DNA of 64,000 nt from a virus, in IMG/VR virus record IMGVR_UViG_3300020165_000009; one strand, given 5' to 3'. A program made the translations under genes and the position numbers. The notes beneath the pieces were generated by a model. It was not told the DNA's origin and did not search any database. It saw only the letters and a list, made by a program, of their open reading frames with translations. Every line of letters begins with the position of its first letter. Position 1 is the first letter of the stretch. Shown piece after piece: positions 7,379-57,568 of this stretch.

Positions 7379-8045
7379 TATTTTTATCGGGTTAGATGAA
7401 GCGCATCCCGAAGCATATGATGTATGTCGTGAAAGCATATTAAAAGGTAATAAGAAGTATGAGCTTAATATTAAACCTATTAATTATAATACTGTTTCAG
7501 ACTATTACAGAGCTAGGAATGAAACAGAATCTACTCAATTCTCGTTCGCTCGTTTCTGGACTCCATGGGAAAGCAACCGAACAGGGGTAAGTATATTTGT
7601 GGATAGCGATTTCGTCTTCTTGGAGTCCATAGATAATCTTATTGATCTATATGATGATCGATATGCTGTAATGTGTTGTAAGCATAAAGATTACGAACCT
7701 AAAGGCGACGTTAAGATGGGAGGTAAATTACAATCTAAGTACCCGAGGAAGAATTGGAGTAGTTTAATTATTTTTAACAATTCATATCTAGCAAACGATG
7801 CATTATGTCCTATATTTTTAAATACATATACAGGTGCACACTTGCATAGATTCGAATGGCTTCAAGATAGTGAAATTGGCTCAATACCTGTGGAGTGGAA
7901 CTGGCTAGTTGATTACTATACGGAGACAGAGAGCTTCAAACCCAAAGCCCTCCATTATACTGATGGTGGTCCGTGGTTGAACCAACATAAGAACTGCTCC
8001 TATAATAAGATTTGGAAAGCAATACATAATGAGATATCTAGATAA
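7362..8045 (+). CDS. Glycosyltransferase (GT8-like)
   Basis: STQFSFARF, FVDSDF (DxD), YPRKNWSS, WNWLV, HYTDGGPW. Confidence 0.85.
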   Translation: MKECINIFIGLDEAHPEAYDVCRESILKGNKKYELNIKPINYNTVSDYYRARNETESTQFSFARFWTPWESNRTGVSIFVDSDFVFLESIDNLIDLYDDRYAVMCCKHKDYEPKGDVKMGGKLQSKYPRKNWSSLIIFNNSYLANDALCPIFLNTYTGAHLHRFEWLQDSEIGSIPVEWNWLVDYYTETESFKPKALHYTDGGPWLNQHKNCSYNKIWKAIHNEISR

Positions 8046-8973
8046 TTTTTTAAATAACCATGATAGAGAAGTAGATGAGGGTGCATTTAAACCCCACACT
8101 CTTAATGAGAAATTTGGTAAGATGGTTAATATGCAGACTATTTTTAATTGTAACCTGAATTGCTGTTTTTGTAGAGGATCTATACCTAATATAAAGGAAT
8201 TATCAAGGGTAAAGACAATGACGCAAACTAATTTCGAGATATTTGTTAATAAATTTGCTGATTATGGTATAAAGTATATTGAGTTAACACCGGCGATTGG
8301 TGAGCCTTTTTTAGATAAGGAGTTTGATAAAAAGCTAAAATATTTAGAATCAAAAAAAGAGATTGATCATTATCTCGTAACGACTAACTTAACAATACTT
8401 CAGCCTAAGCATTTCGAATTACTTAAGAACTTAAAAAAACTTATTTTAACGGTATCATTATACGGGTACGATAGCGAGTCTTTTAGCGCAAATACCAATA
8501 AAGATAACTTTAAGGTGTTTGAAGAAAAATTTAATACCTTATTTGATACCCTAAATGAAGGTGTTGATTTTTTAGTTGAAATAAACATAAGATGTGGTCG
8601 ACACTTAACTGAATTTCCTAAGAACGATCTCTATATTAAGCTTTTACGACTTAATAAGTTAAAGAACGTTAAAATAAATCAAGAGGATATATACAACCAT
8701 AATAGAGGAGATAATTTAAAGGATTTCGAAACGGAAAAGAGGCCTAGGTCAGGTATTTGCCCCTTCGGACCAGGTGTAGGTGGAGGTGTTTTACCTAATG
8801 GTGATTTTCTATTCTGCCCGTTTAATGATCTTAATAATACCGGTGTTGTTGGTAATCTTTTTAAACAGTCCTTAGAGGAAATATATAATAGTGACGGTTG
8901 GAAGAGAGTTGTTACTGAGCATAAGCAAGATAAATATACAGGTATATGCGAGAATTGTACAGAGACCTGGTAG
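8029..8973 (+). CDS. Radical SAM/SPASM protein
   Basis: CNLNCCFC, GEPFL, NGDFLFC, C-terminal CENC. Confidence 0.85.
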   Translation: MRYLDNFLNNHDREVDEGAFKPHTLNEKFGKMVNMQTIFNCNLNCCFCRGSIPNIKELSRVKTMTQTNFEIFVNKFADYGIKYIELTPAIGEPFLDKEFDKKLKYLESKKEIDHYLVTTNLTILQPKHFELLKNLKKLILTVSLYGYDSESFSANTNKDNFKVFEEKFNTLFDTLNEGVDFLVEINIRCGRHLTEFPKNDLYIKLLRLNKLKNVKINQEDIYNHNRGDNLKDFETEKRPRSGICPFGPGVGGGVLPNGDFLFCPFNDLNNTGVVGNLFKQSLEEIYNSDGWKRVVTEHKQDKYTGICENCTETW

Positions 8974-14237: not shown

Positions 14238-15045
14238 AAGAATTATAATTTTAGGTAACGGTAATTTAGGTAAATATTTAGAGCGGTATTTGAGTAAGCT
14301 TTACTCAGTTACAGTGTATGATAGAAGGCATTTTAATGCTATGTTCTTTTCTGATTCAGAGTTTTTTAGACGTAATATTAAATCAGGTGATGTAGTAATT
14401 AATAGTGTAGGTCTCTTAAAACCAAATATTAAGTCACAGGAAGCTGCATGGGAGGTAAATGCTGTATTTCCTCAAATTATGCAATCCATATGTGAAGATA
14501 ATAATGCCAACTTTATACATATATGCAGTGATTGCGTCTTTAAAGGAGATAGAGGTAAGTACCTAGAAATTGATGAGCCTGACTGCAACGAAGCCTACGG
14601 TATATCAAAAAGCCAAGTAACAGAAGGTACTATTATACGTACGTCATTTATAGGTAAATATGGCGGCTTACTTAAATGGGTATTAGATAGCTATGAGCTC
14701 GGAGCCGAAGAGATCACCGGTTATGATAACTGTATATGGAATGGTGTTACAACTCTAGAGCTATGTAAATATATCGCTTTAATTATTGATGCAGATGACT
14801 TCTGGGACGGGGTTCGGCACTTCCATACACCCGGCGCCATTTCAAAATATGATCTGTGTAGATTGATTAGTAATATTTACAGTTTAAATATTAATATTAA
14901 CCAAGTAAAAGCTACTGATATAAGTGGTACAATAGTAGGTGTAGGTAATAAGCTAGATAGAACGCTAGCGAGTACGCAGCGCTTACCATATGTACCTACT
15001 TTTAAGCAGCAGCTTAAAGAGCTTAAATTATATGATAGTAAATAG
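14230..15045 (+). CDS. dTDP-4-dehydrorhamnose reductase-like SDR (RmlD family)
   Basis: GNGNLG, HICSDCVFKG, YGISK, IIRTSFIG. Confidence 0.8.
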   Translation: MNKRIIILGNGNLGKYLERYLSKLYSVTVYDRRHFNAMFFSDSEFFRRNIKSGDVVINSVGLLKPNIKSQEAAWEVNAVFPQIMQSICEDNNANFIHICSDCVFKGDRGKYLEIDEPDCNEAYGISKSQVTEGTIIRTSFIGKYGGLLKWVLDSYELGAEEITGYDNCIWNGVTTLELCKYIALIIDADDFWDGVRHFHTPGAISKYDLCRLISNIYSLNININQVKATDISGTIVGVGNKLDRTLASTQRLPYVPTFKQQLKELKLYDSK

Positions 15046-16144
15046 TCACAATGAATGGGATCAACTAGAAGAAGTTATAGTAGGTGATGGTTTCCCGAGT
15101 GAACTACCCCTACTGGATTATTCGTTTAAATTGTTTTTTCATGAAAATCTCTGGGACGGCTGTCCGGACGGGAGAGACTATGAATTTGGTGAACAGACCA
15201 TTCAAAAACGGCATTGTGAAGAGCATGCAGAAGACTTAAATAAGTTTTGTGATCTTTTACAGTCACTTAATGTAAAGGTTAGGCGACCTAAGACACCTAA
15301 AAGAATAAGCAAGACTAAAACTCCGCTATGGAGCAGTACTAACCACCCCGCTCTTAATGTAAGGGATATGGCGATGGTTGTAGGTGATACTATCATTGAG
15401 TCTCCTCCGACGTGTAAATATAGATATTTTGAGAACGATTACCTACATCACCTATTTTTAGAGTACTTTAAACAGGGCGGTAAATGGATCCAGGCCCCTA
15501 AGCCCATAATGACAGATCATAGTTTTGATTTATCCGGAATTAATGAAGATAATGGTAAGAAGTATTATATAGACGTCAGGCAAAAAGAACATTATATGGA
15601 TTGCGGTGTTGAGATAATGTTTGATGCCGCTAATTGTGTTAGGATGGGTAGTCATATATTAATGAATGTATCAAACGAGAATCAGGAACTAGGCGCTAAA
15701 TGGTTACAGCAGGCCGTAGGTGACAAGTATAAAGTAATCACAACACCGCTCACAGATTCTCATATTGATTCATCATTTCTACCATTACGACCAGGTCTAG
15801 CTATTGTTATGAAGGAGCCTGAGTATGTAAGGCCACGGCTTCCTGCTGAGTTACAGTCATGGGATCTGGTGCATATACCTACTAGAAACCGGACTCAATC
15901 TGAAAAGGAAGCGCAGGGTATTAAGCTGGCGTCTCCGAGGATAGAATTAAATGTACTCTCAATCTCACCGGAGCTTATTATATGTCACTCCCAGTATGAG
16001 ACGGAGTTAAATAAGGTTTTAGCTAAGTATGGTATAACAGCAATGGGTACTCCGTTCCGGCATTGTGAGATTTTTGCTGGAGCACACCATTGCACTACCC
16101 TGGATGTAAGACGAAAGAGCAAATATGAAAACTACTTCGAATAA
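15032..16144 (+). CDS. L-arginine amidinotransferase (StrB1 inosamine-phosphate / glycine amidinotransferase family)
   Basis: VNSHNEWDQLEEVIVG, RD, FDAAN, HIDS, GAHHCTTLDVRR (catalytic Asp/His/Cys). Confidence 0.9.
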   Translation: MIVNSHNEWDQLEEVIVGDGFPSELPLLDYSFKLFFHENLWDGCPDGRDYEFGEQTIQKRHCEEHAEDLNKFCDLLQSLNVKVRRPKTPKRISKTKTPLWSSTNHPALNVRDMAMVVGDTIIESPPTCKYRYFENDYLHHLFLEYFKQGGKWIQAPKPIMTDHSFDLSGINEDNGKKYYIDVRQKEHYMDCGVEIMFDAANCVRMGSHILMNVSNENQELGAKWLQQAVGDKYKVITTPLTDSHIDSSFLPLRPGLAIVMKEPEYVRPRLPAELQSWDLVHIPTRNRTQSEKEAQGIKLASPRIELNVLSISPELIICHSQYETELNKVLAKYGITAMGTPFRHCEIFAGAHHCTTLDVRRKSKYENYFE

Positions 16145-16889
16145 CGCAATAACTTGCTCTACTGATTACAACTATATTCACTACCTGTATAAACTAGTAG
16201 ATAGTCTACATGCAAATAATACGGATGCTGATATTTTTATACGTATTGTTGATTTTACGCCGGATCAATTTGAGGAGGTGAGATCAAAAATAACAAGTAA
16301 TAAAGTAGAGTATATCATCGATCAACCTAATCTTAGTAATCGAAAGGATATATTAAAAGACGTTGATTCTGCAATGCATTATGTATATGGGGTTGATGTA
16401 TGTAGAAACGGTAGTAAAAATATTAAAAAGTTACTGTATAGTAAGCGTAGTGTGTATACATGTCATAGCCGCTTTAAGACGATTAGTATGCTATTGAATA
16501 GAGGTTATAATAATGTATTGAGTTTAGATGTAGATACTGTTGTTATAAAGGATATAAATCATATGTTTAATAATCATACATATGATGTGTCTATAGTACC
16601 TACTTATACGAGCAATAAGATTGAATTATGGTATAACGAGGGTCTTTTGCATATAGGTAATACACCTCAATCAGTTCTATTCTTTAAAGATGTTGAAAAC
16701 TTTATTTTTAATAGTGGTAGACATTTTGAGTGGAATATAGATTCTGAAGCTCTTGACAGGTGCTTCGCGAAGAGGCAAGATCTGAGAGTAGGTTATCTGG
16801 ATAATACCTATAAGGATAGAGAGTTCAATGATGATTCTTATATGTGGTCAGGTGATAGTATATGTAAGTATAACGAGAGGTTTAAATGA
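16125..16889 (+). CDS. Glycosyltransferase, GT-A fold
   Basis: CSTDYNYI, LSLDVDTV DxD motif; paralog of 8946..9755. Confidence 0.7.
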   Translation: MKTTSNNAITCSTDYNYIHYLYKLVDSLHANNTDADIFIRIVDFTPDQFEEVRSKITSNKVEYIIDQPNLSNRKDILKDVDSAMHYVYGVDVCRNGSKNIKKLLYSKRSVYTCHSRFKTISMLLNRGYNNVLSLDVDTVVIKDINHMFNNHTYDVSIVPTYTSNKIELWYNEGLLHIGNTPQSVLFFKDVENFIFNSGRHFEWNIDSEALDRCFAKRQDLRVGYLDNTYKDREFNDDSYMWSGDSICKYNERFK

Positions 16890-17680
16890 ATAAAATAATA
16901 CACCAAACATGGAAAAATAAGAATATTCCTAACGATACTTTTAAGAGAAATTGGGTTGAGTCGTGGAAGAACTTAAACCCAACTTGGGAGTATAAATTAT
17001 GGACTGATGAAGATATGCATGACTTTATCTCAACCAAATATAGTTGGTTTCTACCTACATTTGAGGCATATCCGGAGCAAATACAGAGAGTTGATTCATT
17101 CAGATACTTTATCATTTATGAATATGGTGGCTTATATGCTGATCTTGATATTGAATGCTTTAAACCATTAGACACCCTTTTAACGGACAATTGTATAATA
17201 TTTCAGACATACCCGGAGCACCAAATGAAAGCAATAATAGATGCAGATAACCGAGAGCACCCACTTCGTAAACACTTCCCGTTACATAAACTTAAGAAGG
17301 GGTATTTTTTAACTAATAGTATTTTTTACAGTAATGGTGGTCATAAATTTTTTAAGAAGTGTATAGAGGGCTTAGAGAAGAGTTACGAGGAAAGTAAACG
17401 GTATAGATTTACAGAATTTGACTTTTTAAATAAGTCGTGTGTATGCAATACACACATAACGATGTCAGCCGGTAGTGGATTTTTAACAAGAATGTTTTTT
17501 AAATATGGTAGGGTTTTTGATGTAAAGGATTATAGTTACGGTTTCTTTGAACCATACAAACACACCAGGCGTAAAGAAATTCTATTAAATCAAGAGGCTT
17601 TTAATAAAGAAAATTTATACGGTATGCACTGGAATCTAGGTAGCTGGATAAATTTAGAGGACTCTGAATATAAGATATGA
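16886..17680 (+). CDS. Glycosyltransferase GT32 (OCH1/DXD-sugar-binding family)
   Basis: KIIHQTW, SWKNLNP-WEYKLWTD, DSFRY, YGGLYADLD. Confidence 0.9.
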   Translation: MNKIIHQTWKNKNIPNDTFKRNWVESWKNLNPTWEYKLWTDEDMHDFISTKYSWFLPTFEAYPEQIQRVDSFRYFIIYEYGGLYADLDIECFKPLDTLLTDNCIIFQTYPEHQMKAIIDADNREHPLRKHFPLHKLKKGYFLTNSIFYSNGGHKFFKKCIEGLEKSYEESKRYRFTEFDFLNKSCVCNTHITMSAGSGFLTRMFFKYGRVFDVKDYSYGFFEPYKHTRRKEILLNQEAFNKENLYGMHWNLGSWINLEDSEYKI

Positions 17681-18393
17681 AGGTGACTGATATACATGTT
17701 TGTTATGTTATTAACGATAACAAGGATTTTATAGACCTTACTATTAAGTCTGCTAAACAACTGAAAAAATTCTTTAGATCTGAGGATCATAACCTAAAGA
17801 TCTATGCGTTAAGTGAAATGGAGCTGGAAGGATTACCACCATTTATTGAGAATGTAATCTCGCCTCATAAGGATATACCGTTGTTGTGGCAGCGTATGTA
17901 TATACCGGAGTTGATTAATTCTGATAAATGTATCTTCCTGGATAGTGATACTCTAGCATATACATGTATTAGTAAGTTATGGGATATTGATATTGGAGAC
18001 AGTTATATAGCGCTGGCTCCACACTATTGCATGCATACTATCCAGGAGATGCTTAACCACTACGGTTTAAATGAGTTTCCACTATACAGAGCCAAGGGAG
18101 ACGTACAGCAATATTATAATTGCGGTGTGTCTGTTATAAACAGTAGACTATGGAGAGACCTAAGCCTCATCGAAATACCACTCGAGTATTATGAGAGTAT
18201 TAAAAGTACATCGCACTGGAAAAATGATGAACCTACATATAACGTCTGTTTTTCTGATAATATATTTGAGCTCGATAAAACGTGGAATTATTACCCTATA
18301 GACGCCTATAAGAAAGCAAACATTGTACACTACTACGGTACGTACATTAAAGGTAAACCTTTTCATAATGAATTTGCTATTCATCCAGACTGA
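17677..18393 (+). CDS. Glycosyltransferase family 8
   Basis: IFLDSDTL, YYNCGVSVIN, WNY, IVHYYG. Confidence 0.85.
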   Translation: MKVTDIHVCYVINDNKDFIDLTIKSAKQLKKFFRSEDHNLKIYALSEMELEGLPPFIENVISPHKDIPLLWQRMYIPELINSDKCIFLDSDTLAYTCISKLWDIDIGDSYIALAPHYCMHTIQEMLNHYGLNEFPLYRAKGDVQQYYNCGVSVINSRLWRDLSLIEIPLEYYESIKSTSHWKNDEPTYNVCFSDNIFELDKTWNYYPIDAYKKANIVHYYGTYIKGKPFHNEFAIHPD

Positions 18394-28944: not shown

Positions 28945-29739
28945 ATGTCAAAGATTGGTGTAGGTATAATAACGTGTAATAGAAATGATTTTTACATTAG
29001 GTGTATTAAAAGCATTAAATCTGACTGGTTCGATGAGATTGTTACCATTAATGACGGTGATGAGCCTATAGCAACTACAGACGCTCCTCATCGTCATATT
29101 ATTAACAACGGGAGGAATTTAGGTGTTTGTAAGAGTAAAAATAAAGCGCTTACACACCTATTATCAAAAGGCTGTGAGTATATTTTTCTCGTAGAGGATG
29201 ATATGGTGTTTAAAGGTAATGCGTTTGAAGAATATATTAGAGCAAGTAAGATTACTGGTATACAACATATGTCGTTTGCATACCATGGACCGGCTAATAA
29301 AGGTAATATTAGTAAAGGTAAACCTAAGCCGAGAAAGGTAATTGATTACGGTGACGTAAAAATTGCACTAAATCAGCACTCAGTTGGTGCTGTATGTTTT
29401 TATACCAAGGAAGCATTAGATAGTGTAGGTATATTTGATGAAGAGTTTGATAAAAATAATTTTGAACATGTAGAGCATTCTTATAGTCTCGCCAAAGCCG
29501 GTTACAGTACACCTTACTGGTGGTGGGCTGATATAGCTAATAGTTGCGATCTTATTCAAGAACAGGCTTGTAGTGAAGAATCCTCGTCAATAAGAAGAGG
29601 TGATGATTGGCAGCAAAAAATAATCGACAGTGCATACTTATTTCAGAAGAAGCATGGCTATATGCCGGCATGGCAAAATGCAGTCCCCGATACACCATTG
29701 CCTGACGTTATTAAGATTTTAAAGAGTATGAAAAAATGA
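28945..29739 (+). CDS. Glycosyltransferase family 2
   Basis: GIITCNR, INDG, NLGVCKSKN, FLVEDD, VGIFDEEF. Confidence 0.85.
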   Translation: MSKIGVGIITCNRNDFYIRCIKSIKSDWFDEIVTINDGDEPIATTDAPHRHIINNGRNLGVCKSKNKALTHLLSKGCEYIFLVEDDMVFKGNAFEEYIRASKITGIQHMSFAYHGPANKGNISKGKPKPRKVIDYGDVKIALNQHSVGAVCFYTKEALDSVGIFDEEFDKNNFEHVEHSYSLAKAGYSTPYWWWADIANSCDLIQEQACSEESSSIRRGDDWQQKIIDSAYLFQKKHGYMPAWQNAVPDTPLPDVIKILKSMKK

Positions 29740-30461
29740 TATCTTTTATTATAGCTTACAAGCAAGATACTAAAGAAAGGGCTGTAAATTTAGAATACTG
29801 TAAGAAGTATTATAAACAATTGGTACCTGGTTGCGAGATTCTGATTAAAGAATCATCTGATAATAACTTCAATAAGTGTAAGTTATATAACAAAGGAGCT
29901 TTAGAGGCCAAGCACGATGTGTTGTGTTTTTTAGATAGTGATGTGTTTGTTTCAAAATACTCTATTCAGAAATCTATTGAATTGGCAGATATGGATAACG
30001 TCATTATAGGTTATAATGGAGTGGCTATATATCTATCATATAAATCTAAACGCACATTAACTAGTGATTTAAAATATCAGAATATGCTAGAGATACTACC
30101 GGTAAACTACGTACCGACTCGATTAGAGAAAAATGAGATGTTTGAGGTAGGTAATCTTAAAGCAGTCGGTGGCTGTTTAGTAATGTCTAGAGACTGCTTT
30201 AAAGATGTTAACGGATTTAATCCTAATTTTATTAACTGGGGATATGAAGATAATGAGATTGTAACCAGATGCCATAAACTCAAAAAGAATGTTATTTTAG
30301 CTAATACAAAAGACCCATATCTATTTCACTTACCTCATCATGATGTAGAGGGGGATAAGAGTGTACATGACTTTTACACAAACAATCAAACCGAGTATAT
30401 GAAAGTATGCGAGATGAATTATAATGATTTACAAAAATACATAAAAACATGGAAGCTATAG
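29736..30461 (+). CDS. Glycosyltransferase (GT2/GT7-like)
   Basis: FNKCKLYN, FLDSDV, VNGFNPNFINWGYED. Confidence 0.85.
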   Translation: MISFIIAYKQDTKERAVNLEYCKKYYKQLVPGCEILIKESSDNNFNKCKLYNKGALEAKHDVLCFLDSDVFVSKYSIQKSIELADMDNVIIGYNGVAIYLSYKSKRTLTSDLKYQNMLEILPVNYVPTRLEKNEMFEVGNLKAVGGCLVMSRDCFKDVNGFNPNFINWGYEDNEIVTRCHKLKKNVILANTKDPYLFHLPHHDVEGDKSVHDFYTNNQTEYMKVCEMNYNDLQKYIKTWKL

Positions 30462-31117
30462 ATGTAATTATACTCTCAAATACAGCTAATTTAGAGTATT
30501 ACAGCAAACTAAAAAAGTGTATTAACTCTCTAAAGTCGAGTACTAATATTAAAACTAATATTATTGTTATTGAGACAAACAAAAAATTAAGAGGTAAAAA
30601 TTTAAAGCTACCAATCGATACACTCTATATTCCCGAGGATGCAGAATTTAACTATAATAAGTTTCTGAATTATGGTCTCACTTTCTGCAAACACGATTAT
30701 TTGTGTATATCAAATAACGACGTTTATTATAATAAAGATGTTTTATGTACCCTAGTCGATCACTTAGATGATTATGATTCCGTTAGCCCGTGGGATGATA
30801 ATTCTACGTGGCGGTTCCATCAAACCAAGGGAATACATGTAGGTTACTCTACCAGGATGTTTGTAACCGGTTGGTGCATTGTAACAAAGAGAGTCACTAT
30901 AGATAAAATCGGTGGTAAGTTTGACGAGAGATTTTCTTTCTGGTTTCAGGATGATGATTATTCTAAGCTATTAGAGACTAATAATCTAACGCATGCGTTA
31001 ATTGGTGATGTATCGGTATGGCACGACTGTGGTCAGAGTCACGAACTATTCAGTAAAGAGGATAGAGAGAAACAAACACATGGCTTATCAGAGGTCTTTA
31101 ACGAAAAATGGAAGTGA
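30449..31117 (+). CDS. Glycosyltransferase family 2
   Basis: FNYNKFLN, ISNNDV, FDERFSFWFQDDD. Confidence 0.8.
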   Translation: MEAIDVIILSNTANLEYYSKLKKCINSLKSSTNIKTNIIVIETNKKLRGKNLKLPIDTLYIPEDAEFNYNKFLNYGLTFCKHDYLCISNNDVYYNKDVLCTLVDHLDDYDSVSPWDDNSTWRFHQTKGIHVGYSTRMFVTGWCIVTKRVTIDKIGGKFDERFSFWFQDDDYSKLLETNNLTHALIGDVSVWHDCGQSHELFSKEDREKQTHGLSEVFNEKWK

Positions 31118-31923
31118 ATAAAAAAATTACATTGCGAGATAGTAACTTCGCTGGTAGGGATGTCTTGAGTATGCCAGGTGTTAATTTTTCCTGGTATACA
31201 GGTGACAATATAGTTAGTGAGCACGTTTTCTTTACAGATAAAAAATTGCAGGATGTAGATGAGGCTCAGTATAGCAATGTTAAGAAAGTTGCGTGGCTGC
31301 TCGAACCTAAGGGTATCGACCCGTCTATATATGATTGGATCTTAAAAAATTATCATAAATTTGATAACGTACTAACATTCGACCGTAATATTATATCTCA
31401 AATTGATAACGGTATATTTCAGCCGTACGGTACCTATTGGGTTGAGAAAGATAGCCCTGTAAAGAGTCGCTCAGTCTCTATGATTGCATCCTACAAAAAA
31501 GAAGCTACTGGTCACAAGATCAGACACTCAATATATAAACACTTTAAGAGCCGTATAGATACGTTTGGTACTATTACCGGAAGCCGGTTAACTAATAAAG
31601 ATGCAGGCTTGAGGGATTTTAGATTTTCTGTTGCTATTGAAAACTGTATACAAGATGGGTATTTTACTGAAAAAATACTCGACTGTTTTGCTACAAAAAC
31701 CATCCCGATATACTGGGGTACACGTACGGTTGGAGAGTTTTTTAATACAGATGGTATTATATTTGTGGATGATTTTAAGAGTATTGAAAGTCTAATTAAC
31801 TCTCTCAGCGAAGACGTGTACAGTAGTAAGCTCGAGGCAATTCAAGAGAACTTTAATAAGATAGACGACTACCATATACCGGAACTGTACATTGAGAAAA
31901 ATTACAAGGGCTTGTTACATTAA
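31108..31923 (+). CDS. GT10 (fucosyltransferase-like) glycosyltransferase
   Basis: FRFSVAIENC, YFTEKILDCF, IPIYWG. Confidence 0.8.
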   Translation: MEVNKKITLRDSNFAGRDVLSMPGVNFSWYTGDNIVSEHVFFTDKKLQDVDEAQYSNVKKVAWLLEPKGIDPSIYDWILKNYHKFDNVLTFDRNIISQIDNGIFQPYGTYWVEKDSPVKSRSVSMIASYKKEATGHKIRHSIYKHFKSRIDTFGTITGSRLTNKDAGLRDFRFSVAIENCIQDGYFTEKILDCFATKTIPIYWGTRTVGEFFNTDGIIFVDDFKSIESLINSLSEDVYSSKLEAIQENFNKIDDYHIPELYIEKNYKGLLH

Positions 31924-49329: not shown

Positions 49330-50808
49330 TTAGAAGTACACGCTGTTTGAAGCAGGTGTAAATGAGACCCCAAGTCCAGTAACGAGAATAGTGTGGTAGT
49401 AGAGGTTAGCTCCAAAGATATTATCAACTACGCCGTAACGTGTAAGCAAGCCTACACGTGGTGCGAAGTCATTAGGACCAATGGTGCGCTGAACCATAAC
49501 CGGGATGTACGGACAATAGATAATACCAGTGTCATAGAACTCAGGTCCCTTGTAACCCAATAGGGCGTACTCAGGCTTCTCTGCATTAGCTGCATCGATG
49601 TTGTTACCATCTGTTCTAGTATCACGGTATACATTGAAACGTCCACCAAGATTACCGATCTTAGCTACTCCGACAGGCTGTGTGTTTACGTTACCTTGTA
49701 CAGGTGCCCACTGGAATTCAGGGAGCATCTCAAGGATGGCGCATACGCGTGGTGTTGCAACAATAAAGTTTGCAGCGCCACGACGGTTACGTACAGCAAT
49801 GCGGTTCGCTTCGATGATTAATCTTTGATAGAAATCACGATTACGTTCTACTAACCAACGACCGTCGGCGGAAGCAGGACTCCAGATGGAGTAACCAGCA
49901 CCCTCGCCCGCGTCCAGTGAAACCTGAATCATACGGACCAACATTTCACGGTCGATCTCGGCCTGAATTTCGTACGACATAGCGTTCGTTAATTCAGTAT
50001 CGATATCGATACCATTCATGTTTTTAAGGTCCTGTTCAAGTTCAACTGACCAGCGCGCGCCTAGGCGTCTAGTTCCAGCTTCTACTGCTGTCTTCTCGAA
50101 GGATACTTCAAAGGATGGAATGTTTCCAGTTACTTCGAAGTTCTTGAGAATAGCAGCTACACCCTTGTCTCTCTCACTGATTAGGTTATTTACGTTATAC
50201 GCAGTGTCGCCTGTACCAGAGAGATAAGCAGCGGATGTACCAGTGTATGCAGTTTGCAGGTAGTTGTAACCAGCCTCTTGACCTTCCGCATCCGCAAGGA
50301 TGGGACCCTGATCAACAGGGGTATTACCAGCGCCTGTTTTGCCGTCGATACCAGTACCAAGGGTTTCCCCAGAATAGCGATAGCGAAGAGCAAATGCAAG
50401 TCCAACAGGACCTGCCATAGGCTGCACACCAACAATCTCGTTAGTGATTAACTCGGGGAAAGTTCGTCTAATCATTGGAATCAAGATCTTCGGGAGACGG
50501 AAGTCACCTTGGGCGTACTCGTCGGTACCAGGGGTACCAAACGCAGAACGACCAGTGGTCTGTCCGGTTCCGACGGAACCACCGGCGCCAGCAACGTTAC
50601 CGTTGGTTGGTGCGTAGTTAGGTCCATTCTCTTGAATACACCATGCTTCTTGGTTTTCCAATAGCATTGCTGTGTTCAGTCGAGTGTGACTGTCTTCGAT
50701 GGGTGCAACTGACTTAGAAGAATAGTCCAATACTGGAGCCCATTTTTCTAAGAGGGAAGCTGCTCTAGATTCGTCAATATAAGCCTGTGATGGGCGGATT
50801 GAATTCAT
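49330..50808 (-). CDS. Major capsid protein (gp23)
   Basis: LLEKWAPVL, LLENQE, GVQPMAGPVGLAFALR, ELEQDL, EIQAEIDRE, YCPYIP, TRYG. Confidence 0.97.
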   Translation of the reverse strand: MNSIRPSQAYIDESRAASLLEKWAPVLDYSSKSVAPIEDSHTRLNTAMLLENQEAWCIQENGPNYAPTNGNVAGAGGSVGTGQTTGRSAFGTPGTDEYAQGDFRLPKILIPMIRRTFPELITNEIVGVQPMAGPVGLAFALRYRYSGETLGTGIDGKTGAGNTPVDQGPILADAEGQEAGYNYLQTAYTGTSAAYLSGTGDTAYNVNNLISERDKGVAAILKNFEVTGNIPSFEVSFEKTAVEAGTRRLGARWSVELEQDLKNMNGIDIDTELTNAMSYEIQAEIDREMLVRMIQVSLDAGEGAGYSIWSPASADGRWLVERNRDFYQRLIIEANRIAVRNRRGAANFIVATPRVCAILEMLPEFQWAPVQGNVNTQPVGVAKIGNLGGRFNVYRDTRTDGNNIDAANAEKPEYALLGYKGPEFYDTGIIYCPYIPVMVQRTIGPNDFAPRVGLLTRYGVVDNIFGANLYYHTILVTGLGVSFTPASNSVYF

Positions 50809-51800: not shown

Positions 51801-51950
51801 TTAAAAGATTGTTGTATTATTATTTATCATTTTAGTCTTAATTTTCCCGCTTATTGCCTTATTTAAATGAGAATCAGCGTTCTTATAGTCCTTATTGATG
51901 ACCTTATCGATAAATTTGACGATTTCCTTCTTAATATTCTGTTGACTCAT
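51801..51950 (-). CDS. Small prohead core protein (gp67-like); not in the ORF track
   Basis: Hand-translated 49 aa MSQQNIKKEIVKFIDKVINKDYKNADSHLNKAISGKIKTKMINNNTTIF; fills the gp21-gp22 gap. Confidence 0.65.
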   Translation of the reverse strand: MSQQNIKKEIVKFIDKVINKDYKNADSHLNKAISGKIKTKMINNNTTIF

Positions 51951-51956
51951 AATATT

Positions 51957-52625
51957 TTATAGACCTTTGATAAATTTTAGCATATTCTCTCTCAAAAACG
52001 CATCTGTGTTCTTGAGGGGCATAGTTGAGATAGTCTTTTCGAAATCATCGTATGCTTCCTCAAACTGTCCGTACTGATTGAGTACATATTGCTTGCTTTC
52101 TAGAATACCATTAACAAAAGCTTTTGGGAAGGAAGGATCAGCAACACAGTCGATTGCTACTAATTTAAAATCTTTTACACGGTTAACACCGTCGCGATTA
52201 CTTTCAGGGATTAGTTGACCTAATGCTCTAGAGCTCATACCAACCCTTACACCATCATTAATAAGGCTTCTTACAATTAAGCCTGTTGGTGTTGATAGTA
52301 CTTTACTCTTACCATAGAATACATTACCATCCTGAGACATCTCAGTTACAATATGACAGGCTCTTTCTAAATCTACATCAGCAGTTGAAGGGTGATTAAG
52401 CTCTCCCATTGCCCTGCCAGGCTTGACCATTTCTTCTTCGTAGCGTGAAACTTCGTCTCTCATCTCATTAAGAGAGTATATACGCTTGTTACGATTTACG
52501 TCTTCGGCCATCATATACGGGCCTTTAATAAAGAGACTCTGCTTGCCTTTAGTAGAGCCTTCTTCAACGACATATTCGAAGGACTCGCGAGGAGCTGGTG
52601 TTTCGACTATTAGATTCAATCCCAT
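51957..52625 (-). CDS. Prohead protease (gp21)
   Basis: NRNKRIY, AMGELNHP, GMSSRALG, DCVADPS. Confidence 0.95.
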   Translation of the reverse strand: MGLNLIVETPAPRESFEYVVEEGSTKGKQSLFIKGPYMMAEDVNRNKRIYSLNEMRDEVSRYEEEMVKPGRAMGELNHPSTADVDLERACHIVTEMSQDGNVFYGKSKVLSTPTGLIVRSLINDGVRVGMSSRALGQLIPESNRDGVNRVKDFKLVAIDCVADPSFPKAFVNGILESKQYVLNQYGQFEEAYDDFEKTISTMPLKNTDAFLRENMLKFIKGL

Positions 52626-52687: not shown

Positions 52688-53137
52688 TTAACGTATACCT
52701 AATTCTTTCTCAGTTAAAATAAGAAATTCATACCCCTTTTGATCAGCCCACCTTTTAGCCGCCTCCCATTTCGCCTGATTTACCACCCAAGTTCGTTGCT
52801 CGTATATCAGCGTAGTTTTCTTTTTTGCCTTTGTTGTTGTTGGTCTAGCTACAGAGCCACTAGGTTTTATTTCAATAAGATACTTCTTAGGTTTATTATC
52901 TCTATTAAGAAACACTATATAGTTATCAACAAAATACCTATGCACTCTTTTATCTAATGGGCTCACATACGGTACAATGATACTCTCACTGCCCCATTTA
53001 AGTACCCTGCTATTAGAATCAGCCCACTTAAAAAATTTTAACTCCCAACTAGATCTATAAACAGGGTCCTTACCGCCGTCATACTTCTTTCTATTAATAG
53101 GCTTATATACACCCTGCCTATATTTTTTCTTCTTCAT
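52688..53137 (-). CDS. Head completion nuclease (gp4, TnsA-like)
   Basis: YRSSWELKF, WGSE, HRYFVD, IEIKP, NQAKWEAA, ILTEKEL. Confidence 0.92.
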   Translation of the reverse strand: MKKKKYRQGVYKPINRKKYDGGKDPVYRSSWELKFFKWADSNSRVLKWGSESIIVPYVSPLDKRVHRYFVDNYIVFLNRDNKPKKYLIEIKPSGSVARPTTTKAKKKTTLIYEQRTWVVNQAKWEAAKRWADQKGYEFLILTEKELGIR

Positions 53138-53140
53138 TCC

Positions 53141-53314
53141 TTAAAAAAACGGACCTGGTTCACCTGCTGTAGTAGACTTAGCAACACCTCTATCACTATC
53201 TCCAATAATTCTAAAGACGTTAAAAGGATCACTATCACCTATACCAGATAGATAGGCTGCACTAGTACCTGTATATGAGGTGTCCAGGTAGTTATAACCA
53301 GCTTCGTTACTCAT
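53141..53314 (-). CDS. 57-aa protein homologous to an internal segment of the major capsid protein; not in the ORF track
   Basis: MSNEAGYNYLDTSYTGTSAAYLSGIGDSDPFNVFRIIGDSDRGVAKSTTAGEPGPFF; TAATG coupling to the gp13 stop; ends 3 nt before the gp4 ATG. Confidence 0.8.
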   Translation of the reverse strand: MSNEAGYNYLDTSYTGTSAAYLSGIGDSDPFNVFRIIGDSDRGVAKSTTAGEPGPFF

Positions 53315-54498
53315 TAACCTACAAAGAACATAGGCGGATCACTGTCACCTAAACCAGGTGCACCTTCATATAACATAGTCTCTAAACTAGCTTTCTCTGC
53401 TAATCCCTGTGTCATAAGATCAGAAGAGTTTAAACTACCACCTCCAAATAAGGTTACTGTCCCATACTTACCTCGAATATTTGCAACCGTAATTTTAGTT
53501 AGCGCCAATGAGTATTGGTATACCCAGTGCTCTTTAATTATATCTCTTACCGGTCTCTCGACAGAGCACATGACAACACCGTAGAATCTACTAGCCGAAC
53601 CACCACCGGATCTCGGCTGAGGGTACATCCTCAACATCTGAGTACGGTCATCGAATGTATAACTACGTTTTGTAGCTAGTAGCTTCTCTCGCATCTCCAT
53701 CCAATCCTTAAGAACATACCAGCTAATCAAATCAAACCCGTAGCTGCCCATAGCGTAACTGAAGTATGTTTGCTGAGCCATTGTCTGCTCAATAGTAAAC
53801 AGCTGATTGACACCTGATGATGTACCTTCCTCAAAGTCCTGGACAGCTATAACTTTTCTGTAATCCATTACATCGTAATCGTAGCTATTAAAATACGATG
53901 TATCGACATTAGGAGAATCAGCTCCTGATGCAGAGCCTAATATACTAAAGGACTTAACCGGTTGTACTATAAATGAGCTACTGAGCGCTGGTAAATCCTC
54001 AAGAATCTTATCATATATTGTACCATCGACAATATCATTTGCGGATAAGTTGTTACCGCTCGTAAAGACGGTTGAAAGTGCACTGCTAGTAGTAAATTCT
54101 GATGATGGTATAGCTGATGCAGCTATATATGTAGCGTTAGTCGATTTATTTTCAATTCTATTAGTAAAGTCCGGTGATTTTACACCATCCAAATACTCCT
54201 GACCAAACGTATCCATCGTATTAATTGTAAAGAGGTGATCTAATTTGATGCCTTGGTTGAGTACATACAAGTCACTATCAAATAGAAGATACTCTTGAGT
54301 GTAGCCGGCGAACTTAGTAAACATCTCAACAGCAATCTGAATATTAGTATAGAGACTATCACGATGAATCTCTATATTAATAAAGGGATAACCTAATGTA
54401 TTAAGAATCCTATCACTCAGTTCATTAAAAGTATTGATCTTACTACTAAGATTTGTACTCTGAAATGCTGAGACTGGTTTTATATCGCACTTTGCCAT
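53314..54498 (-). CDS. Neck protein (gp13)
   Basis: LGYPFINIEI, WVYQYSLALTK, RGKYGTVTLFGGGSLN, PPMFFVG. Confidence 0.9.
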   Translation of the reverse strand: MAKCDIKPVSAFQSTNLSSKINTFNELSDRILNTLGYPFINIEIHRDSLYTNIQIAVEMFTKFAGYTQEYLLFDSDLYVLNQGIKLDHLFTINTMDTFGQEYLDGVKSPDFTNRIENKSTNATYIAASAIPSSEFTTSSALSTVFTSGNNLSANDIVDGTIYDKILEDLPALSSSFIVQPVKSFSILGSASGADSPNVDTSYFNSYDYDVMDYRKVIAVQDFEEGTSSGVNQLFTIEQTMAQQTYFSYAMGSYGFDLISWYVLKDWMEMREKLLATKRSYTFDDRTQMLRMYPQPRSGGGSASRFYGVVMCSVERPVRDIIKEHWVYQYSLALTKITVANIRGKYGTVTLFGGGSLNSSDLMTQGLAEKASLETMLYEGAPGLGDSDPPMFFVG

Positions 54499-54596: not shown

Positions 54597-56375
54597 CTAA
54601 ACAGCAGGCTCTACTGGACCAGCATCACCGCCTGCGTCGCCGCCTTCAGCTGCACCTTCGACTTCTCCACCAGTATCAGCTTCACCACCAGTATCAGCTG
54701 GTGCTCCACCAAAATCAGGTGCTATACCAGCTGGTGTACCACTCTGCATCCCAGGCACTTCATCACCCATACCGGCGCCGATCTGTAATTCGTCCTTCCA
54801 GTTCGGACCACCACCAGCTATCTGCTGCAGCTCCCATTGAAACTCAGCGTCCTTGCGCAATAGTTCTCTATTAGCTTTAATATCATTCTCATTCCATCCG
54901 AGATACTTCTTCTGACCGTAGGTGGCAGAGATAAACTCATTAGCTACTAAGTTATTATAGTTAGTAGCTTTCAGCTCGAGCTTCTGATTCTCTCTTAATT
55001 CAAAGAAGTTTGTAGGTACATTAAATTCGAGATGTATATTCTGCTCCTTAATGCCATATTTTTGCTTAGCACCTTTAAGCTCTAGATGTGTCAAGAAGCC
55101 ATTCTTAAGTCCGGAAGCAAATTGCTGCTGCAATCTAATAATAAACTTTGCGAACTTAAGTTCGTCGCGTAGTATCTCCTGACCATCTGAAACTCCAGAC
55201 TCTGGATTAAGCCTGTTCGTCGGTACCTTTAAAGATTTATAGAGCTTATTAACAAAGTACATTAGATCTGCTAGCTCACCTAAGTTAGCACCACCTTGTA
55301 GCTGTGTAACAGATGTACCGTCAGAACCGGCTCTCTTAGCGAACCAGAAGGAATCGAGCATTGATTGCGGGTTAAACTTCTGAACTGCACCTTCCTGGTT
55401 AACATCGAACGTTTTCTTTGACCAGTATTGTTGAATAAGCTTTCTAAGATACGCTTCTGCTTTAGGAGGTGCCATATTACCCACATCAACGTTGAATACA
55501 AGTCTCTCAGGTGCTCTTACTAAGCGGTAAATTACAATACTATCTTCAACAAGTGACAACTGCCTATAAGCTCTTCTAGAGTTCTCGATAAATGGTAGTC
55601 GAAACGATTTGTCTTGGTTCCATATACCAGAATGTACATATGTTACCTGATTAGTATCCATCGGCACAAACTCCATCTTATCAACCTTATCAGGCTTGTT
55701 AGGGTCAAAGACTGGCTTTCGTAAAATATAGCCTTTAATGAGCATATTCTGAATATTGTCATATACAGAGTCGATAAGATCTGACGGCAGCTGTACGATA
55801 CCTAATATACCTTCCTTCGTATACTCCTTATGAATAATATGCTCGAAGAATACTTCACCTTCACATAGCATCTGTCTAAAGTACTCAAATCCTTTTCTCT
55901 CTAGAGCAAAATAGTCGATATACTTTTCAAACTCCTTCTCAATAATAAGCTGATCTTCTTCTTTTAACTCTGTATTGCGTAGTTTTAGTTTAACAATGTC
56001 ACCATTAGCGTCAATGTTAATAACTTGGTCACATATCTCATCGAGTGCATCAGAGATTTCAGCGAATGACGCCATAATTCGATAGTCACGTAATCTACCT
56101 GACTTATTCTCTTCAATGTTAGCATATACTAGCTCGGCATATTGACCTTCTTTACTGACCTGACCCGCTGCAACACTATTATAGTCATTATTATAGAATA
56201 CAGACTGATCAGCTAGTGCTTCAGTTCTTCTTACACCAGTATTTTGAAACTCTGTATACTTCGGGTTTAGGTTACCAATAAGATCTTCCGCATTAGGCGT
56301 CTGATAAGGTAATCTACTAGCTACACTCTTCATGAAGTTAGAGTTAAAAAATGATTTCTTTTCGTTATCCGCCAT
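54597..56375 (-). CDS. Portal protein (gp20)
   Basis: YRIMA-EISDALDEI, EDSIVIYRLVRAPERLVFNVDVGN, KLYKSLKVP, RDELKF; Gly/acidic tail. Confidence 0.95.
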   Translation of the reverse strand: MADNEKKSFFNSNFMKSVASRLPYQTPNAEDLIGNLNPKYTEFQNTGVRRTEALADQSVFYNNDYNSVAAGQVSKEGQYAELVYANIEENKSGRLRDYRIMASFAEISDALDEICDQVINIDANGDIVKLKLRNTELKEEDQLIIEKEFEKYIDYFALERKGFEYFRQMLCEGEVFFEHIIHKEYTKEGILGIVQLPSDLIDSVYDNIQNMLIKGYILRKPVFDPNKPDKVDKMEFVPMDTNQVTYVHSGIWNQDKSFRLPFIENSRRAYRQLSLVEDSIVIYRLVRAPERLVFNVDVGNMAPPKAEAYLRKLIQQYWSKKTFDVNQEGAVQKFNPQSMLDSFWFAKRAGSDGTSVTQLQGGANLGELADLMYFVNKLYKSLKVPTNRLNPESGVSDGQEILRDELKFAKFIIRLQQQFASGLKNGFLTHLELKGAKQKYGIKEQNIHLEFNVPTNFFELRENQKLELKATNYNNLVANEFISATYGQKKYLGWNENDIKANRELLRKDAEFQWELQQIAGGGPNWKDELQIGAGMGDEVPGMQSGTPAGIAPDFGGAPADTGGEADTGGEVEGAAEGGDAGGDAGPVEPAV

Positions 56376-56416: not shown

Positions 56417-57568
56417 CTACTGGGGGAATTCTATATATATCGGCTTATTGCCCCTACCCTCCTCGCCTGCAGGCGCTGTAGCGGAGAGATATGAATTGAT
56501 CGATGTATCCCAACCGGCACTATTATATGGCACAAATGCAAAGGTGCCTGACAAAGCTGATACGGGTAATGTCAGTGATAGAGAGTTTTCACTGTTAACT
56601 GTGTAATTAATTGGTTGACCGGATATAGCCCCCTGTCTGGTGAACTCATCAAATACGTCAACACTTGCTAGTGAGTCTGTATCTGATGCTGATAATATTA
56701 ATCCGTCGAGTAAGTTAAATCTCATACCCTCCAAACTAATCTCAAGATCATCCGGAGGCAGGGTATCATATACAACAGGTTCTTGTAATCTGACACCGTT
56801 AACGAATAGGCCGGTAACATACGGTGAAGCAGATGTCTCAAACGACTCAGTTGTATGACCTGACAGGTATGTACCAGTCATTGACTCGTACTCTGTAATG
56901 TGGCTCTCTGCTACAAAGTTCTGATCAATATAAAATATATTACCAGCTGGTTGGTCTTGATCCTTGAATAACCATCCTTTAATAGTAAATGTTGTATCTG
57001 CCGTCACACGTGCCTTTTGAGCACTTGTTAGTTCGATAGGGTAACTCATTGATACGTTACCGTTCCATAGTACTTCAGATCTAATCTCTTGATCTATATC
57101 CGTATTAAACTCTTTGGGTAGATACCATGATATAATAACATATGGGTTACAGAATGGTACGAAGTTGGATAGTATCTGATCGACGTCAGTCTGATACCGT
57201 GCAAGAATAGATACGTTGAGCTCTAGATTAATAGGTATAGGCGTCTTAATGTGGCGTGAATAAAGATCACCTGCCTTATCGCCCGCCTGATTAGCGCTAT
57301 AATAGAAGCCATCCAGCTTGTTAAACACTCGTGATACATCTCTTGATATACTAGATACTGAAACAGCAACCGCAGGTATAGTGATTGTTTTATTTAAGTT
57401 AACAATATCATGCATTACACGCTGCTTAGGTGCATACAGGTATCTAACGTTAATGCGATCCTCTTCTTCACGATCTTTATTAAATCTGCCTATAACGATA
57501 TCGTCAAACGCAGCTACAAACTGCGCGACCATGTCTTTAATCTCAAAATAGTACGGACGGGCTTTCAC
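56417..57568 (-). CDS. Tail sheath stabiliser/terminator (gp15) with C-terminal extension
   Basis: FDDIVIGR, YAPKQR, PIPINLE, QILSNFVPFCNP, FTIKGWLF. Confidence 0.8.
   Translation of the reverse strand: MKARPYYFEIKDMVAQFVAAFDDIVIGRFNKDREEEDRINVRYLYAPKQRVMHDIVNLNKTITIPAVAVSVSSISRDVSRVFNKLDGFYYSANQAGDKAGDLYSRHIKTPIPINLELNVSILARYQTDVDQILSNFVPFCNPYVIISWYLPKEFNTDIDQEIRSEVLWNGNVSMSYPIELTSAQKARVTADTTFTIKGWLFKDQDQPAGNIFYIDQNFVAESHITEYESMTGTYLSGHTTESFETSASPYVTGLFVNGVRLQEPVVYDTLPPDDLEISLEGMRFNLLDGLILSASDTDSLASVDVFDEFTRQGAISGQPINYTVNSENSLSLTLPVSALSGTFAFVPYNSAGWDTSINSYLSATAPAGEEGRGNKPIYIEFPQ

Follow-up and report, generated by a model that had tools for sequence, protein, structure and literature searches.

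A small gene apparently derived from the major capsid protein, between the gp13-like and gp4-like genes of an uncultured marine T4-like phage

The window (the whole 64,000-nucleotide stretch of DNA that was analysed) belongs to a marine T4-like myovirus that has not been cultured. Along its minus strand, a gp15-like gene (56417-57568) is followed by the gene for the portal protein gp20 (54597-56375; PF07230, 4e-98), which lies directly upstream of that for a gp13-like neck protein of 394 amino acids (53314-54498; PHROG 211, with PF26809 found on relatives). Then come the small gene with which we are concerned, referred to below as the mini-gene (53141-53314, minus strand), a gp4-like head-closure gene encoding 149 amino acids (52688-53137; PHROG 218, 1.4e-49, and PF08722), the gene for the prohead protease gp21 (51957-52625), an ORF of 49 amino acids (51801-51950), the scaffold gene and finally the gene for gp23, the major capsid protein of 492 amino acids (49330-50808), assigned by PF07068 (2e-89), an AF2 model and Foldseek. 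The 49-residue ORF is conserved to about 43% identity in distant loci and has no family match in Pfam, PHROG or NCBIfam; it may be a small prohead-core protein, placed like gp67 and gp68 of T4. In T4, the gene for gp14 follows that for gp13, and gp13 itself is a protein of 309 amino acids. In the window, gp13 is followed directly by the mini-gene and then by the gp4-like gene, with no gp14-like gene at the position that gp14 has in T4. The gp14 protein of T4 has about 250 amino acids, is essential and forms a hexamer under gp13 (PMC12929587); the mini-gene product is short, optional and without similarity to it, and is thus not a gp14.

The mini-gene was recognised by its homology to gp23 and by its reading frame. 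It has an ATG start and encodes 57 amino acids (P0001), of which residues 4-45 are homologous to residues 177-218 of gp23 and residues 46-57 form a family-specific tail. The tail has no counterpart in gp23; in the family it ends G-E-x-G-P-F-(F/V/I), with T48, G51, E52 and the hydrophobic end conserved. The ATG overlaps the TAA stop codon of gp13 (TAATG), and the start codon of the gp4-like gene lies 3 nt beyond the stop of the mini-gene, so that the coupling to gp13 and the abutment on gp4 described in an earlier reading of the letters alone (the sequence-only reading) are both present. The product has no match in Pfam, PHROG, NCBIfam or PADLOC families and no structural look-alike in the ESM Atlas. 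It does not belong to PF07068, having no Pfam match and spanning, with its 57 amino acids, the E-loop insertion only. Prediction for the peptide by itself gives a disordered chain. The gp21 cleavage motif (L/I)-x-E is absent from the alignment of mini-gene products, including near their ends. A near-DNA search and tblastn with the mini-gene against 50,697 cultured-phage records gave no meaningful match, the DNA of the window has no near match among the same records, and gp13 gives distant jumbo-phage matches only among cultured phages; judged by these searches, the clade that carries the mini-gene has no cultured relatives.

The likeness to gp23 is close at the level of the peptide. Residues 3-45 of the product align with gp23 residues 177-218 with 28 of 43 positions identical (BLASTP, E 2e-15); over the first 24 of these three pairs differ (D/Q, S/A and I/T), leaving 21 identical. 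A tblastn search of the window places the gp23 copy at 50277-50155 and finds no other comparable match to the mini-gene within the 64 kb. Both searches agree with the sequence-only reading, which had counted the same 21 identities, and all of the synonymous differences that it listed (GAA/GAG, TAT/TAC, AGT/TCC, GCA/GCT and CTA/CTC) are there. The DNA of the two segments is identical at 54 of 71 bases (76%), the same codon is used at 9 of the 19 positions that encode the same residue, and near-exact agreement extends over no more than 17 of 18 nt. Residues E4, G6, L10, T12, T15, G16, L22, G24, G43 and A45 are invariant in the mini-gene family, and they match residues that are invariant in the gp23 of the clade (E178, G180, L184, T186, T189, G190, L196, G198, G216 and A218). 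The strongest conservation within the family, amounting to 21 invariant or nearly invariant residues, falls exactly in the gp23-like part, which is 80-90% identical to gp23 despite randomised synonymous sites. Since the core residues are shared, the peptide probably retains the local structure of the gp23 segment from which it descends.

What that segment does in the capsid can be approached through T4. An AF2 model of the window gp23 built from 25 close sequences (pLDDT 32) was unusable and was replaced by one based on an alignment of 126 relatives (pLDDT 79.6, pTM 0.79), which matches T4 gp23 structures with Foldseek E values of 1e-22 to 1e-18. The strands of the E-loop in this model are residues 135-145 and 233-243, with the copied segment between them. 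This intervening stretch answers, in the model, to the I domain of T4 and the linkers of that domain, and its core, residues 177-218, is what the mini-gene product corresponds to. The parental segment (gp23 residues 178-218; 50155-50277, minus strand) comprises the E-A-G-(Y/F)-N motif of I-domain linker 1 and a small I-domain core. Conservation of its first half, E-A-G-(Y/F)-N ... (Y/F)-(T/S)-G, extends throughout the gp23 superfamily, with E178 nearly invariant, and a profile alignment places this motif on E142-G156 of T4 gp23. In T4, linker 1 of the I domain (gp23 residues 132-160) has no order before the head expands and acquires it on expansion through contacts with neighbouring subunits; the I domain rests on its neighbour within the capsomer, the insertion stands out from the surface of the capsid, and the I-domain linkers, together with the N-fist, form the binding sites for Soc (PMC9546572). 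When the mini-gene product was co-folded with residues 103-492 of gp23 in two copies, the score was 0.00 and the partner pLDDT below 50, an outcome that carries no weight for or against docking.

A gp13-based scan of viral contigs yielded 80 loci (L001-L080), in which gp13 identity ranges from 50% to 100%. Intact homologues of the mini-gene, encoding 53-57 amino acids, lie immediately 3′ of gp13 in 16 of the 80 and form three sublineages: one of 57 amino acids (87-100% identity), another of 57 amino acids (77%) and one of 53-56 amino acids (about 60%). A search of 5.8 billion proteins returned 17 clusters of 53-57 amino acids together with one aberrant form of 71. This last protein (P0020, from an ENA contig of 523 bp) has the first 27 residues of the mini-gene product followed by an unrelated tail of 44 residues, and is probably the product of a frameshift or a chimera, its contig being very short. 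When the same proteins were used as a weak test for fused or longer forms, gp23 alone was obtained, with no fusion of the mini-gene product to gp13 or to gp4. In every pair of mini-genes with unsaturated dS, the pairwise Nei-Gojobori dN/dS is 0.04-0.2; the window and L007 differ by 22 synonymous and 5 non-synonymous changes (binomial p 3e-10), and L015 and L027 by 16 and 2 (p 5e-9). These ratios bear out the proposal that the peptide is conserved and not the DNA. The start of the mini-gene contacts the gp13 stop at all loci that have it, as TAATG, TAGATG or TAAATG, and the frame, start and coupling are retained across lineages in which gp13 is only 65% identical. The evolutionary pattern identifies the mini-gene as a genuine small gene, predicted to be translated and under purifying selection, and the suggestion that the hidden ORF would prove to be conserved in relatives was correct.

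The frame in which the mini-gene stands relative to gp13 varies with lineage, being a minus-1 overlap in some and in frame past the stop codon in others. In the lineage of the window the two genes are in different frames; in the third lineage (L015, L025, L026 and L027) the ATG is in the gp13 frame (TAGATG or TAAATG), where read-through would give a fusion of gp13 with the mini-gene product. Because the relation varies and the adjacency of stop and start is alone conserved, what is maintained is a coupling by reinitiation and not a fusion to gp13 by frameshift or read-through, a possibility that can be set aside. The mini-gene is thus predicted to be read by termination-reinitiation right after gp13.

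A tree was built on 42-residue segments from the mini-genes and from gp23. A single branch (SH-aLRT 94) sets all 19 distinct mini-gene sequences apart, and the group that they form lies inside that of the gp23 segments from the same clade of phages, which indicates a single old partial duplication of gp23. Homology to the gp23 segment is also attested by the BLASTP match and by the longer relatives of the mini-gene product, all of which are gp23. The mini-gene appears, therefore, to have arisen once, by partial duplication of the E-loop insertion of gp23 (the linker-1 motif and the small I-domain core). Nucleotide identity between a mini-gene and the gp23 of its own genome is 0.52-0.76, no higher than that to foreign gp23, and in L025 and L027 the resident gp23 segment has diverged while the mini-gene retains the ancestral N-Y-L type. 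These observations argue against ongoing conversion and against co-variation, neither of which was seen across the mini-carrying genomes compared; the co-variation with each phage's own gp23, which the sequence-only reading had offered as a check, is not found. The amino-acid identity of the two copies points instead to parallel selection on both. In distant loci the gp15-like protein has what might be taken for a third occurrence of the motif; it was attributed to chance, as its position is not conserved in the clade of the window.

In the gp13 tree the mini-gene is limited to one clade of 22 rows, and its distribution there calls for no fewer than three to four gains or losses. Three loci whose gp13 is 93% identical to that of the window (L008-L010) are without it, the difference being a clean 174 nt, and it is likewise missing from L017, although the gp13 of this phage is almost identical to that of the mini-carrying L015, and from the rest of L017-L023, whose gp13 is likewise close or nearly identical. 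Its distribution is therefore patchy and the gene dispensable: absence from near-identical relatives means that it is optional and that any structural role it has must be optional too. That it is a required structural piece is excluded by the same close relatives. Within that group, a phage has the same gp23 segment whether or not it carries the mini-gene, which implies that it does not compensate for a change in gp23. We take the mini-gene to be optional cargo, confined to a single clade of marine T4-like phages.

The junction between gp13 and gp4 is variable in other ways. Among the 80 loci, the two genes abut one another, often as TAATG, or are separated by the mini-gene alone, by the mini-gene and an opposite-strand ORF of 172-178 amino acids, or by an ORF of 85 amino acids. 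Beside the opposite-strand ORF, which belongs to no known family, there may be a fatty-acid desaturase of 381 amino acids (PF00487, 8.7e-14) or an ORF of 302 amino acids. In this clade the junction acts as a hot spot for cargo genes. The gp13 gene next to it ends in a segment of 14 residues, P-G-x-G-D-x-x-P-x-(M/L)-F-(F/I)-V-G (53317-53360, minus strand), which is almost invariant across the 80 loci, even among gp13 proteins with an overall identity of no more than 50%. In T4 the C-terminal arm of gp13 docks between the clip helices of the portal (PMC12929587), and the near-invariant C-terminus fits a portal-clip docking arm of this kind. Part of the arm, G-L-G-D-S-D-P, is encoded by a 22-nt sequence (53336-53357, minus strand) that has a near-repeat within the mini-gene (53226-53247, minus strand, encoding G-I-G-D-S-D-P), with 20 of 22 nt identical. 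The middle residue of G-(L/I)-G-D-S-D-P agrees in three of six sublineages and the motif is absent from the third mini-gene lineage. Chance or local conversion could account for the repeat; the idea that the mini-gene product mimics the gp13 arm was rejected, as the likeness is restricted to two sublineages and missing in the third.

The reading that we prefer for what the peptide does is put forward tentatively. The mini-gene product has the same core residues as the gp23 segment, and in T4 that segment acts in trans on a neighbouring subunit, from which we infer that the product would dock likewise, on gp23 or on whatever recognises the segment, as a free copy of a capsid clamp. The coupling to gp13 would bring late timing and a low dose. 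On the analogy with T4, the mini-gene product is possibly, though slightly less likely than not, a non-essential accessory of assembly or of the virion that docks in trans as the gp23 segment does and is made in step with gp13; most plausibly it would then assist or reinforce head completion, without being required for it, at the capsomers next to the portal or close to them, with a status like that of Soc or of the Hfq plug of T4. Two findings on T4 necks are in keeping with such a role: the gp13 anchor fills the gap between portal and capsid, touching the P domains of gp23 at the portal vertex (PMC12929629), and neck assembly uses Hfq, a non-essential helper (PMC12929587). T4 itself needs no filler because its portal morphs to fit the capsid (PMC7136217), and with the contact of the T4 I domain made within the closed ring of a capsomer, it is hard to see where a docking site would be free. 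The suggestion of a stand-alone loop that fills a contact at the portal vertex survives in part, the gp13 anchor being a precedent for an element there, but the closed hexamer ring leaves no such unsatisfied site as had been supposed. Also counting against an accessory role are the absence of the mini-gene from phages with close or nearly identical gp13 and no compensating change in gp23, the non-structural cargo at the same junction, the failure of the mini-gene to track its own gp23 and the disorder predicted for the lone peptide. It is doubtful that the product is, specifically, a free inter-subunit clamp acting in trans, whether by capping the capsomers of the portal vertex or, as a mimic, by occupying a factor of the host or of a rival phage that recognises the gp23 motif.

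The patchy presence of an optional gene at a cargo hot spot, in some of a set of near-identical phages, is typical of arms-race genes, and it could be proposed, along the lines of the decoy suggested in the sequence-only reading, that free gp23 motif blocks a host factor sensing or acting on unassembled capsid protein, or interferes with the gp23 of a co-infecting rival. A motif conserved across the gp23 superfamily would suit the target of a sensor, and it is constant in the mini-genes even where the resident gp23 has diverged. Nevertheless, we consider this unlikely. There is no similarity to anything in PADLOC, Pfam, PHROG or NCBIfam, the segment maps to residues 142-156 of T4 gp23 and not to the Gol region that triggers Lit, and late expression coupled to a neck protein of 12 copies is poorly suited to the titration of gp23, the late protein made in greatest abundance. 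Moreover, with the capsid sensors Lit and CapRel it is binding that activates defence, so that a mimic would be expected to trigger it and not to block it. For CapRel, activation in this way is summarised in PMC13728456. Equally improbable, in our estimation, is that the fragment has been domesticated for a new late-period function unrelated to mimicry, its likeness to gp23 reflecting ancestry and its residues serving a small fold of their own. The conserved tail without gp23 counterpart, the lack of co-variation with gp23 and the unrelated functions of the neighbouring cargo genes are in favour of this; peak conservation in the gp23-like part, maintained while synonymous sites were randomised, points to a constraint that the two proteins share.

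Other readings are less probable still. The window has at least seven ORFs of glycosyltransferase families (GT2, GT7C, GT8, GT10 and DXD sugar-binding), at 14990-18393 and 28945-31923 on the plus strand, and the T4 insertion protrudes from the capsid (PMC9546572); Ser or Thr make up 11 of the 57 residues of the mini-gene product, which has a Ser/Thr-rich loop, Y-T-G-T-S-A-A-Y-L-S-G. If this loop were a glycosylation site on the exposed insertion, the peptide could be a second substrate for, or a regulator of, glycosyltransferases of the phage. Both glycosylation of the capsid and the action of the transferases on protein, as opposed to DNA or the host envelope, are putative, and gp23 relatives throughout the superfamily have the motif; the proposal seems to us very unlikely. 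A radical-SAM/SPASM ORF is also found in the window (8029-8973). That the mini-gene is a decaying duplication or non-coding remnant might be thought from its shortness, its lack of a family and its absence from some relatives, and the sequence-only reading had named a dN/dS near 1 among the signs of such decay. Intact frames, low dN/dS (with p values down to 3e-10) and coupled starts, held at 65% gp13 identity, exclude decay for almost all practical purposes, and the selection test refutes it. A use as recombination donor for an alternative capsid loop, also raised at the outset, could draw on the DNA identity to the gp23 segment of the same genome. It is rejected as extremely unlikely: the best near-exact stretch of DNA agrees at 17 of 18 nt, identity to own as against foreign gp23 shows no sign of conversion, the mini-genes form a clade of their own, and the start codon and tail are under selection, neither of which a donor cassette would need.

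The accessory reading, and the mini-gene in general, can be set beside several known systems. Like gp24 of T4, it is a duplicate of the major capsid gene kept separately in the head module; gp24, in contrast, is a full-length HK97-fold protein that builds the pentamers, whereas the mini-gene product is limited to the E-loop insertion and is dispensable. It resembles Soc in being small, non-essential and late, and soc is patchy among T4-like phages. It differs in that Soc is not derived from gp23, in that no similarity to Soc of sequence, profile or family was found (PHROG, Pfam, NCBIfam), and in that binding of the mini-gene product to the capsid is putative. Head completion at the portal vertex of T4 involves the anchor of gp13 and, transiently, a plug of Hfq, and the mini-gene product is made with gp13; it is, however, a separate product of gp23 ancestry, and its likeness to gp13 is confined to a motif of seven residues in two sublineages. 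With Gol, the part of T4 gp23 that triggers Lit, and with the stretch sensed by CapRel, it has in common that a short piece of capsid protein forms a stand-alone recognisable unit. Gol, which we take to be residues 93-122 of T4 gp23, is not a separate gene, and the mini-gene product maps to residues 142-156 and beyond; a Gol-type trigger peptide for Lit was rejected on the basis of this profile alignment, and PADLOC gave no link to any defence system. Finally, gp67 and gp68 of T4 are small ORFs between the portal and prohead-protease genes, as the mini-gene is. Unlike these, it has no similarity to them (there is no PHROG match to place it in the prohead core) and no (L/I)-x-E, and it copies an element of the outer surface and not a core protein; the ORF at 51801-51950 is the better positional analogue of the two.

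On the evidence of homology and descent, then, the mini-gene is a capsid-protein-derived accessory gene. No stand-alone gene for a capsid loop was found in the literature on capsid decoys and mimics or on structures of the gp23 insertion domain, of which our coverage is incomplete; if the interpretation is true, this would be the first such mimic described in a tailed phage. Small phage ORFs are usually ignored, and here one emerges from sequence as a working gene of known ancestry. In T4, the element that was copied acts as a clamp between neighbouring subunits and takes on order as the head expands. Since natural variants with and without the mini-gene exist, its function is directly testable: the clean 174-nt indel between natural phages amounts to a ready experiment on whether it helps assembly, reinforces the portal vertex or serves in counter-defence. 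The finding also marks the gp13-gp4 junction as a hot spot for cargo among marine myoviruses of an abundant, uncultured group.
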